From a virus (Duplodnaviria; Heunggongvirae; Uroviricota; Caudoviricetes): a stretch of 42,242 nucleotides of DNA. The notes beneath the pieces were generated by a model. It ran no database searches, had not been told where the DNA came from, and saw only the letters and a list, made by a program, of their open reading frames with translations. Numbering within the stretch: position 1 is the stretch's first letter; each line of letters begins with the position of its first letter. The stretch lies in the IMG/VR virus record IMGVR_UViG_2657245570_000016; one strand, 5' to 3'. The position numbers were made by a program, and so were the translations under genes. Shown here one piece after another: positions 5,172-42,242 of the stretch.

Positions 5172-5933
5172 TTACGAGGAAGCGTTAGCTATTTGAGCTT
5201 GTGTAAATTCGAAACCAGAATTTTGTAACCGTTGCACTAGACGAGGAACTGTTTCACGTACATGGTCGTTGAAATTCAGATACAAAATCCCGTTAGCATC
5301 AGAAGGCTGTTCTAGGTGCTGTTTCTGAAGGATTGCTACATTGCTGCGCCCTAAGGACGAAAGAAGCATACCCATCTCGAGTACAACGTTCTGTCTTGCG
5401 CGGGGTTGGATTTCTGCTTCACCGGCGCGCTTTGAGTATCCCATATCATCAGGTGTCAAAAGAACAATCCCGAAACGAGTAGCAGTTTGTCCTTGCCCAA
5501 TTTCACGTTCAAGCTCTTCAATAATGGTGAGTCCAGTCCCTCCCGTATTCTGCAAAATGAAATGGTCTGGTAATCCAAGTTTATGAAGGATTAGCTCAAG
5601 TTGTTCCTTTGCAGTATGGTCATGGCCGTGAACAATGAATATCTTTTTGGGAAGCTCAGATGGCTGTTCTACGGCTAGTGGTGTTGCCGTGGGGGGCGTT
5701 CCTAAATGGGACATTATTGCAGTTTCAACATTGGGACGTTCTTGAGGGTTCCCTTGAAACTGAATGGTCCGGGTGGTGTAAAGGTTAACAATTACGCCAT
5801 TCGTTAAACGATAGCAGTCATAAGTCTCACGCTGTTCGTGGGAAAAATTGGTGAACCCACACTCCCTCAAAAAGTCAGGAAAAGATTCTCTCGGGTATGG
5901 ATAGTTGATCGGCATTTCAGTTAGTTCCTGCAT
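5172..5933 (-). CDS. Hypothetical protein: N-terminal domain of unknown function (about 90 aa) plus C-terminal TIR-like domain (Cap12/PycTIR-type predicted nucleotide-binding fold)
   Basis: C-terminal KKIFIVHGHDH...FGIVLLTPDD...RARQNVVLEMGMLLSSLGRSNVAILQK...PSDANGILYL matches my recollection of the TIR-like consensus (FIvHG ... TPDD ... RaRqNVvfElG ... pSD..G..y). GC content looks lower than the flanking pol gene. AAAGGA Shine-Dalgarno before the ATG. Confidence 0.55.
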   Translation of the reverse strand: MQELTEMPINYPYPRESFPDFLRECGFTNFSHEQRETYDCYRLTNGVIVNLYTTRTIQFQGNPQERPNVETAIMSHLGTPPTATPLAVEQPSELPKKIFIVHGHDHTAKEQLELILHKLGLPDHFILQNTGGTGLTIIEELEREIGQGQTATRFGIVLLTPDDMGYSKRAGEAEIQPRARQNVVLEMGMLLSSLGRSNVAILQKQHLEQPSDANGILYLNFNDHVRETVPRLVQRLQNSGFEFTQAQIANASS

Positions 5934-40509: not shown

Positions 40510-40824
40510 ATGCTTATTGGCTATGTACGTGTGTCAACAAATGACCAGAACACAGATCTACAACGTAATGCGCTGAACTGTGCAGGATGCGAGCTGTTTT
40601 TTGAAGACAAGATAAGCGGTACAAAGTCCGAAAGGCCGGGACTGAAAAAACTGCTCAGGACATTATCGGCAGGTGACACTCTGGTTGTCTGGAAGCTGGA
40701 TCGGCTGGGGCGCAGTGTGCGGCATCTTGTCGTGCTGGTGGAGGAGTTGTGCGAACAAGGTGTTAATTTTAGTAGTTATGTTATTACAGGTGGGGGATTT
40801 CTCCCCCTTATGCAGATTTTCTAG
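40510..40824 (+). pseudogene. Serine DNA invertase (Hin/Gin/Pin/Cin family), truncated after about 96 codons
   Basis: MLIGYVRVSTNDQNTDLQRNAL...DTLVVWKLDRLGRSV closely matches the Pin/Hin N-terminal catalytic domain; after EQGVNF the sequence diverges (SSYVITGGGFLPLMQIF*) into AT-rich DNA. Typical family members are about 185-190 aa. Confidence 0.75.
40787..40802. other. GC hairpin at the junction between the truncated invertase and AT-rich DNA
   Basis: GGGGGA-TTTC-TCCCCC perfect 6-bp stem, about 27 nt downstream of the stop of the minus-strand 281-aa gene. Confidence 0.4.
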
Positions 40825-40828
40825 TTAA

Positions 40829-41674
40829 CTATTGGCGAAGTGGCCATATTTTTCTGTTTTTTAAAAAACTATCTTCAACTATATAACTGCAACAATGTTC
40901 ACTAAGGCCATAAAAACTAATTATTCCATATTTATGAGAAGCTATATCAGACAGTTCTGCTAATACTGTGGCAAGCCAACGAGCGATGCTAAGAGAATAG
41001 AATCTTCCCCACTTTTGAACAATGGTATTTTGTCCAGTACGGATGGAGGCTGATATAAGGTCTTGCATAATGTTGGTACTTTCATTCATATACATGACCG
41101 TTGTATACGGTGAAAGAGTGGCATTGATAAACCTAGCATTTTCTTCAACACGTCTTTGTTCAACTGTATAATAATAATGTTTTTCAAGGATACTCTCGGC
41201 TACTTCTCCCCACCATTTATTAATAGGTTCATTATTGGTTAAATTGGGGCTGCTTAATGAGGAGAAATTTGCGTAACGTCCCCGTCGGGCATCAGCAAAG
41301 GAATCTAAACATTCAAGTATTTTGTAGGTAATTTTATGTGTAGGACGTGAATATCTCAGAGATAGTTGCATTTTTTTAGAAATACTATCAACCTCGTTGG
41401 TTAATTCAATGAGCTTATGTCCAAATTTTCTTACAATATTCTCATCAGGCATTTTCCCTTTGTGTTCAATGGCATAGTGTGCAACAAGTATTAGTTTAGC
41501 AAGTCTCTCAAAACCTACAGAAAGCCCAAAAAATGCTGTGTAATATTCACCTATTTTGTCTGCATAATTGGCTTTACCTATGGCTGTTGCCCCAGAACCA
41601 ATGAGCTGTGTAACTAAAGATGCTTCTCGGCCCAGAGCGTGCCATGCTGGAATATCCCAGGGATTTTTATTCAC
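40829..41674 (-). CDS. Hypothetical protein (281 aa), AT-rich cargo gene
   Basis: Long ORF in visibly AT-rich DNA; no motif I can assign confidently. Confidence 0.5.
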   Translation of the reverse strand: MNKNPWDIPAWHALGREASLVTQLIGSGATAIGKANYADKIGEYYTAFFGLSVGFERLAKLILVAHYAIEHKGKMPDENIVRKFGHKLIELTNEVDSISKKMQLSLRYSRPTHKITYKILECLDSFADARRGRYANFSSLSSPNLTNNEPINKWWGEVAESILEKHYYYTVEQRRVEENARFINATLSPYTTVMYMNESTNIMQDLISASIRTGQNTIVQKWGRFYSLSIARWLATVLAELSDIASHKYGIISFYGLSEHCCSYIVEDSFLKNRKIWPLRQ

Positions 41675-41801
41675 TTTATTATTTTCCTTTGCTCATAAAT
41701 TTAAATTGTTTGAGTATCTCATAAAATATAAGGAGATGGTTAAGGTTGTTGATCGCATATAATAGCTATTGAAAGTCAAGAACTCGGTTTTATGTTCTAC
41801 C

Positions 41802-41842
41802 ACTAATTAATATATTGTGAGTTTGACAATATATTAATTAGT
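41802..41842. repeat. Perfect palindrome (16-bp arms, 9-bp spacer) upstream of the 281-aa gene
   Basis: ACTAATTAATATATTG-TGAGTTTGA-CAATATATTAATTAGT; the arms are exact reverse complements. Confidence 0.6.
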
Positions 41843-41975
41843 ATGATCAAACCAGCCATCAACTGATTCCTTGTATCTTTCAGAGTCTCCAGAACAAAAG
41901 CCTTAACGAATTCCTTATTTGTGAGTGCCTTACCAAAAGCCCATTGTTGCAGGGAACGAGTATAAAACTCGCCAG

Positions 41976-42242
41976 CTACTGGAGCAGGCTACCTGATTGT
42001 CGATCGATTCCTGCGTCCATATAGTCGATGGTCTTCTGGAGCTCTTCGATTAGGGCAATAGCTTTTGCTCGAGAAATGCATATTAGTTGATCCGGAAATT
42101 CTTGTAAGGGCCAGTTTGGTATACAGGCCATGTTATCAGTGAAGGATGCAGACAAGTAAACTTCATTGGTAACTAGGGAATAGCTTACCTCAAAATTGGT
42201 GAGTTCCGGCAAACTGCTAACGTTTGATTCTTTTCTGCGCAT
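41976..42242 (-). CDS. Hypothetical protein (apparent Met is at the window edge; may extend beyond the window)
   Basis: 88-aa ORF whose ATG coincides with the last 3 nt of the window; AT-rich. Confidence 0.35.
   Translation of the reverse strand: MRRKESNVSSLPELTNFEVSYSLVTNEVYLSASFTDNMACIPNWPLQEFPDQLICISRAKAIALIEELQKTIDYMDAGIDRQSGSLLQ

Follow-up and report, generated by a model that had tools for sequence, protein, structure and literature searches.

Where inverted repeats are imperfect, template switching in E. coli preferentially corrects them towards perfection, and this process has been put forward as the reason why perfect inverted repeats remain over-abundant and conserved in the non-coding DNA of the organism (PMC5941160). 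Template switching can also create and maintain a perfect hairpin stem in a single event (PMC8794818). The perfect inverted repeats that derive from it have short spacers, are longer than expected by chance, and combine one pre-existing arm with a reverse-complement copy of it (PMC5941160; PMC8794818). The 41-bp palindrome described here, at positions 41802–41842 of the window (the whole 42,242-nt stretch of viral DNA that was analysed), likewise shows these properties and, as in quasipalindromes, a perfect core has been retained in surroundings that diverge. Unlike the quasipalindrome cases, it is found at an inter-module joint of a prophage cargo slot and extends into a degenerate repeat of ~100 nt per arm. 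Other described elements share some of its features. As in loxP and FRT sites, two perfect inverted arms surround a short asymmetric spacer, but there is no cognate recombinase and no second site, and the arms exceed the usual 11–14 bp. Like REP and BIME elements, it is an intergenic palindrome that would give rise to an intercistronic RNA hairpin; REP elements, however, occur in hundreds of GC-rich copies, whereas the 41-bp palindrome is AT-rich and single-copy. Like the intrinsic terminators found at moron boundaries, it lies between two independently acquired genes and places a hairpin directly after the stop codon of a (pseudo)gene, but its stem is A-T rich (2 G-C pairs of 17) and is followed by no T/U-run, so that the defining features of an intrinsic terminator fail.

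The palindrome reads ACTAATTAATATATTGT-GAGTTTG-ACAATATATTAATTAGT. Direct reading of the sequence gives two arms of 17 nt (left, 41802–41818; right, 41826–41842) that are 100% complementary and enclose an asymmetric 7-nt spacer (GAGTTTG, 41819–41825), the predicted hairpin loop. Within the right arm, the outermost 9 nt (TTAATTAGT) form the stop-codon region of a dinI-like remnant. A preliminary description of this DNA had reported a perfect 41-bp palindrome here, with arms of 16 and a spacer of 9; the palindrome is real and its arms are perfectly complementary, but one base pair had been missed in the count, the correct lengths being 17 and 7. The approximate distances given in the same description agree with our values: the GTG start of a 281-aa gene (41674, minus strand) is 128 bp downstream of the palindrome, and the stop of an 88-aa ORF (41976) is 134 bp away. 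No longer perfect inverted repeat occurs in the 42-kb window, where the runner-up has arms of 13 nt. In 200 simulated windows (first-order Markov model) the longest arm was 8–12 nt, typically 9–10 nt and once 14 nt, and among 2000 simulated versions of the surrounding AT-rich region (40771–42242) it was at most 13 nt. Because perfect arms of 17 nt are far above these simulated lengths, the palindrome is not a product of chance. Each arm contributes two G-C pairs, the remainder being A-T, and the predicted folding energies are −12.2 kcal/mol for the DNA hairpin (z = −7.5) and −22.8 kcal/mol for the RNA hairpin with its flanks (z = −3.5).

The window represents a ~42-kb E. coli prophage, kin of vB_EcoM-606R2 and 611R5, that is integrated between yfhL and yfhH with the 5' end of yfhL as its target. 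The 18-bp att core, TTCACACATATCACAATT, is present as a direct repeat, with attL inside the yfhL 5' end at 214–231 and the attR copy ~208 bp past the end of the window, and the yfhL coding sequence is restored by this repeat. As the att core lies ~610 bp beyond the palindrome, the palindrome is part of the prophage interior and not of the prophage end; a role as a prophage end or att site was rejected, the 18-bp direct repeat being located elsewhere. Alignment to related prophages identifies a DNA invertase pseudogene, truncated at its 3' end, at 40511–40798 (plus strand), which forms the left border of a cargo slot. Homologue comparison assigns ~40799 to ~41716 to a cargo segment composed of the 281-aa gene (40829–41674, minus strand) and a 5' region that is conserved in its family only to ~41716. 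It is followed by a segment (41717–41833) that has no other match in collections of E. coli, phage and plasmid sequences, and then by the dinI-like remnant, which DNA and peptide similarity place on the minus strand at 41843–41960, with its stop at 41834–41836; the remnant is 5'-truncated and frameshifted and retains only the C-terminal part. The attR-proximal module (41961–42242) contains the 88-aa ORF (41976–42242, minus strand; phrog_17793, function unknown) and is common to SEN34-like prophages, with homology to those prophages stopping at ~41961. Two related prophages, L008 and L062, carry an intact invertase and fill the same slot differently: L062 has a different, 215-aa cargo gene, and L008 has an intact dinI-like gene convergent with the invertase, with a GC-rich terminator in between. 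Compared in this way, the interval between the DNA invertase and the 88-aa ORF is a variable cargo slot, and the palindrome sits on a mosaic joint within it. A TTAATT microhomology at both cassette edges was considered as well and was dropped, since the alignment shows invertase homology running to ~40798.

The palindrome is present in 44 of 5426 complete E. coli genomes, at one locus in each and always in the same context, and no further match was detected in these genomes even at E <= 10. The window itself has no second copy within 3 mismatches. Both arms are found in IMG/VR only in the 6 contigs of this prophage, and four metagenome contigs have the same flanks as the palindrome locus, the remaining metagenome matches being unrelated AT-rich palindromes. 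The palindrome is single-copy and specific to this prophage lineage. The preliminary description had called for a search of this kind and had named multiple dispersed copies as an outcome that would speak against its proposals; no such copies were found in the 5426 genomes. A dispersed repetitive element (REP or MITE) was rejected on the basis of the single locus per genome and of IMG/VR and metagenome matches confined to the same context. Three variants of the spacer were observed (GAGTTTG, GAGTCTG and GAATCTT), so that 3 of its 7 positions vary compared to ~4% of sites in the surrounding 1.4 kb, marking the spacer as a local mutation hotspot; the binomial probability of at least three variable sites among seven is ~0.002–0.004, as estimated post hoc. 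Across 18 sampled haplotypes the 34 arm positions showed no changes, an invariance that is not significant by itself (0 of 34 sites, with ~1.4 expected). A 53-nt stretch around the left arm has 0, 1 or 3 differences across the 44 genomes, matching the three spacer variants.

Variation was also observed at and beyond the left border of the slot. In all 44 genomes the 3' part of the invertase is missing, but the 5' fragment that remains is much more polymorphic, in a mosaic manner, than the adjacent cassette, and the tail-fibre and assembly genes (segment 38265–40483) are different or inverted between genomes. This pattern suggests inversion or recombination driven in trans, or allele exchange. 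In NZ_CP047378.1 an IS421 (IS4-like) insertion is present at the left edge of the cassette. A GC-rich hairpin, GGGGGA-TTTC-TCCCCC, is located at 40792–40807, ~20 nt downstream of the 281-aa stop and at the truncated-invertase junction; it is a possible terminator for the cassette, although no T-run follows the hairpin on the minus strand.

The right arm of the palindrome is continuous with the dinI-like remnant. The remnant has ~75% DNA identity to annotated DinI-like genes, which are found in more than 1000 E. coli genomes and in many phages, with an alignment score of 123 compared to ~25 for shuffled sequences, and its conceptual peptide is identical to a DinI-like C-terminus at 16 of 27 positions. 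The DinI Pfam model gave no match to the conceptual remnant peptides, which are short. The TAA stop of the remnant (41834–41836, minus strand) lies inside the right arm, and the palindrome thus straddles the stop codon of the dinI-like pseudogene. Most of the intact dinI-like genes in IMG/VR also have the 9-nt sequence of the outer right arm at their 3' end, and by this comparison it is the ancestral 3' end of these genes. The possibility that dinI-like genes natively end in such a hairpin was rejected, as ~70 IMG/VR dinI-like loci end in ...ACGTGTTAATTAGTG and have no palindrome. Searches of the E. coli, phage, plasmid and IMG/VR collections yielded no dinI allele closer than ~75% and no ancestor-like form without the inverted copy described below.

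Inverted similarity extends beyond the perfect arms. When the arms were left out and the left flank (41700–41801) was aligned with the reverse complement of the right flank (41843–41960), the score was 42, a value reached by 1 of 2000 shuffles (21.2 ± 4.2) and by none of the control windows from the cassette (at most 33). The aligned flanks share ~70% identity, with indels (p about 5e-4 without taking the register into account), and the alignment is in register with the palindrome core to within ~6 nt. A 27-nt pair (41728–41754 and 41892–41918) is 78% complementary and concentric with the palindrome, their centres falling at 41823 and 41822, respectively. A 246-nt region is predicted to fold as one long interrupted hairpin (DNA z = −3.4; RNA z = −3.9, −57.3 kcal/mol). 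As judged from these alignments and folds, the palindrome is the perfect core of a ~230-bp degenerate inverted repeat spanning ~41709–41938. Since the left flank is significantly similar to the reverse complement of the remnant, in register with the palindrome, the segment without other matches is an inverted copy, now decayed, of what is left of the dinI-like 3' end (41717–41801, plus strand), and it makes up the left flank of the longer repeat. Counted as far as the spacer, the copy fills 41717–41818, beginning at the conserved 5' boundary of the cargo family (~41716). The left flank compared on its own to other dinI genes has no detectable similarity, its score of 24 being equal to the shuffle mean.

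We consider the chances about even that the palindrome is the preserved apex of an inverted duplication made by fold-back or template switching, and that any role it has is no more than that of a passive hairpin. The marks of a fold-back event are present: one arm is continuous with a pre-existing dinI 3' end, inverted similarity reaches beyond the perfect core, and the repeat is located at a rearrangement joint. Under this model, the cargo cassette would have been joined to the right-end slot of the prophage by a fold-back or snap-back template-switch event that copied ~100 nt of the dinI end in reverse, with the 7-nt spacer serving as the turn-around loop. The precursor expected from such an origin is a dinI allele with TAATTAATATATTGT..GAGTYTG after its stop and without the inverted left arm. 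The flanks would later have decayed to ~70% identity with indels, and the 17 bp beside the loop would have been kept identical, most simply by repeated intrastrand template switching, i.e., quasipalindrome correction. The palindrome is then probably not a dedicated protein-binding site; when the DNA is single-stranded, or in RNA reading through from the 88-aa ORF, the sequence would form a 17-bp A-T or A-U hairpin whose effect, at most, is that of a weak, passive barrier or an RNA-end structure upstream of the promoter of the cargo gene itself. An alternative origin, in which the palindrome already existed in the cassette donor and recombined with the dinI end at a TAATTAA microhomology, fits equally well. 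As a structural feature of a mosaic prophage end, the palindrome is an ordinary one. A fold-back origin would make a striking palindrome a structural by-product of phage genome patching and not a regulatory or mobile element, and the locus would serve as a worked example of how an inverted duplication of the fold-back kind can be left behind when cargo is swapped at a prophage hotspot, how the inverted copy of a pseudogene may supply the promoter region of a new gene, and how the apex of a repeat can stay perfect while the remainder decays.

A perfect 17-bp core beside decayed flanks (0.7^17 ~0.002) could equally reflect selection for a function, and because the difference between this core and its ~70% identical flanks may have such a cause, explanations based on an RNA hairpin and on an operator were kept. 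We find it rather improbable that the core has been kept by selection as a site for a dimeric protein of host or phage, or an RNA switch, controlling the 281-aa gene, or as a hairpin that seeds cargo exchange. More specifically, transcripts that run from near attR through the 88-aa ORF and the remnant could contain an RNA hairpin that stops transcription in a non-canonical way, stabilises the 3' end or is a site of processing, insulating the cargo gene from upstream read-through in the manner of REP hairpins or moron-boundary terminators. This is doubtful, though it draws on the predicted stability of the RNA both for the core with its flanks and over the 246 nt, and on the perfect state of the core next to decayed flanks; moreover, no canonical terminator was found on the minus strand between the 88-aa ORF and the 281-aa gene, and the GC-rich terminator that follows the intact dinI-like gene in L008 is absent from the palindrome locus. 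The RNA stem is, however, nearly pure A-U, with a U-tract on neither strand, an Rfam search of the palindrome returned no match at E <= 1, and where the two flanking gene families occur elsewhere, the hairpin is not conserved with them. A terminator had been among the functions suggested in the preliminary description. Downstream of the stem the plus strand continues ATGATCAAACC and the minus strand GGTAGAACATAA, neither of which is a T-run; since a lack of T-runs is combined with only two G-C pairs per arm, the palindrome is not a canonical terminator, and a consensus scan for terminators was also negative, leaving that suggestion without support. An operator for a dimeric regulator had been proposed as well. 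We regard it as unlikely that the palindrome is an operator or upstream site at which a dimeric protein, be it from the host, from the phage or from a gene nearby, controls the 281-aa gene or an embedded promoter. Perfect dyad symmetry with a 7-bp centre, arms that are invariant in the sampled haplotypes around a variable spacer, weak sigma-70-like hexamers on both strands within the palindrome (TTAATA-17-TATATT) and a position ~50–70 bp upstream of the best promoter candidate (41752–41725) are all compatible with a site of this kind, but the prophage has no second site, no other half-site and no half-site enrichment, and the palindrome is absent upstream of all 281-aa homologues examined (Enterobacter, Citrobacter, Serratia and Marinobacter). 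The family shares an upstream stretch of only ~45–55 nt from the start, without the palindrome, which led us to reject a conserved upstream element of the 281-aa family; an element tied to the 88-aa ORF was rejected on the evidence of ~24 prophage loci with ORFs 76–97% identical and other cargo, all of which are without the palindrome. Neither neighbour offers an obvious regulator: no family or fold match was obtained for the 281-aa protein, which is all-alpha, Pfam and NCBIfam searches were negative for the 88-aa protein, and no DNA-binding domain was recognised in either.

Among the well-described operators, those of CRP, LexA and LacI were compared by their consensus sites, and none fits the spacing of the palindrome. 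The left half of the CRP consensus, TGTGA, is present, but with CAATA as the right half; the palindrome contains TGT-N7-ACA, compared to CTGT-N8-ACAG for LexA; and the 8-mer ATTGTGAG equals the left half of lacO1, but with a half-site spacing 1–2 bp too short. The palindrome could also be a core recombination site of the lox or FRT kind, whose inverted arms enclose an asymmetric overlap of 7 bp, or a terminal repeat belonging to a small element that brings cargo into the slot. Its 17-7-17 architecture resembles simple tyrosine-recombinase core sites, with the inverted arms placed around an asymmetric overlap in the range of 6–8 bp, and its position coincides exactly with a module boundary, in a slot that is filled differently from one related prophage to another. 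We nevertheless judge this highly improbable: no partner copy is present at the other edge of the cassette or elsewhere in the window, the palindrome is single-copy in every carrier genome and is absent from the same slot in prophages with other cargo, and no recombinase gene is adjacent, the only candidates being the integrase, which is encoded at the far end and uses an 18-bp att core of its own, and the truncated serine invertase. The end of a small element was nonetheless, of the three options in the preliminary description, the one closest in spirit to these results: a module boundary, the joint between the dinI-like remnant and the cargo, does fall at the palindrome, but the palindrome is not a repeated element, has no partner terminal repeat and is not the att core.

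The 281-aa cargo gene belongs to a widespread uncharacterised family of all-alpha proteins, with at least 486 homologues, 56–74% identical, in Gammaproteobacteria and Alphaproteobacteria. Homologues are located beside hsdR in Enterobacter, after ogr in Citrobacter, between gpA and the portal gene in Serratia, and beside an Abi-like gene in Marinobacter; the ogr and gpA/portal locations are P2-type hotspots. The AlphaFold model of the protein is confident and all-alpha (pTM 0.84). The sequence has no match in Pfam, NCBIfam, PADLOC, PHROGs or the PDB sequences, its fold has no Foldseek match in PDB or BFVD, and a literature search with the protein accession returned nothing. The gene is a candidate new anti-phage or cargo gene and, as a member of a conserved, unannotated family that occurs in known defence hotspots, constitutes a more useful lead than the palindrome. 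Its best sigma-70-like promoter candidate, TCAACA-16-TATATT at 41725–41752 (minus strand), is predicted from consensus match only and falls inside the inverted dinI copy.

Several minor observations were also made. The Marinobacter sp. ELB17 homologue of the 281-aa gene has a defence-island-like neighbourhood, with a fragment of a tyrosine recombinase, an Abi-like protein of 270 aa and a pair resembling YoeB and its antitoxin encoded on its flanks. In the early region of the prophage, RefSeq annotation of an identical locus places a TIR-domain protein at 5172–5933 (minus strand), beside genes for a phage DNA polymerase, SNF2 and VRR-NUC proteins. Seven metagenome contigs with a GC content of ~0.35 contain an unrelated, conserved palindrome family that has the same 12-nt inner half-site as the 41-bp palindrome, CTGTTAATATATTGTAT...ATACAATATATTAACAG, with an 11-nt spacer, and that is possibly an operator in some low-GC organism.
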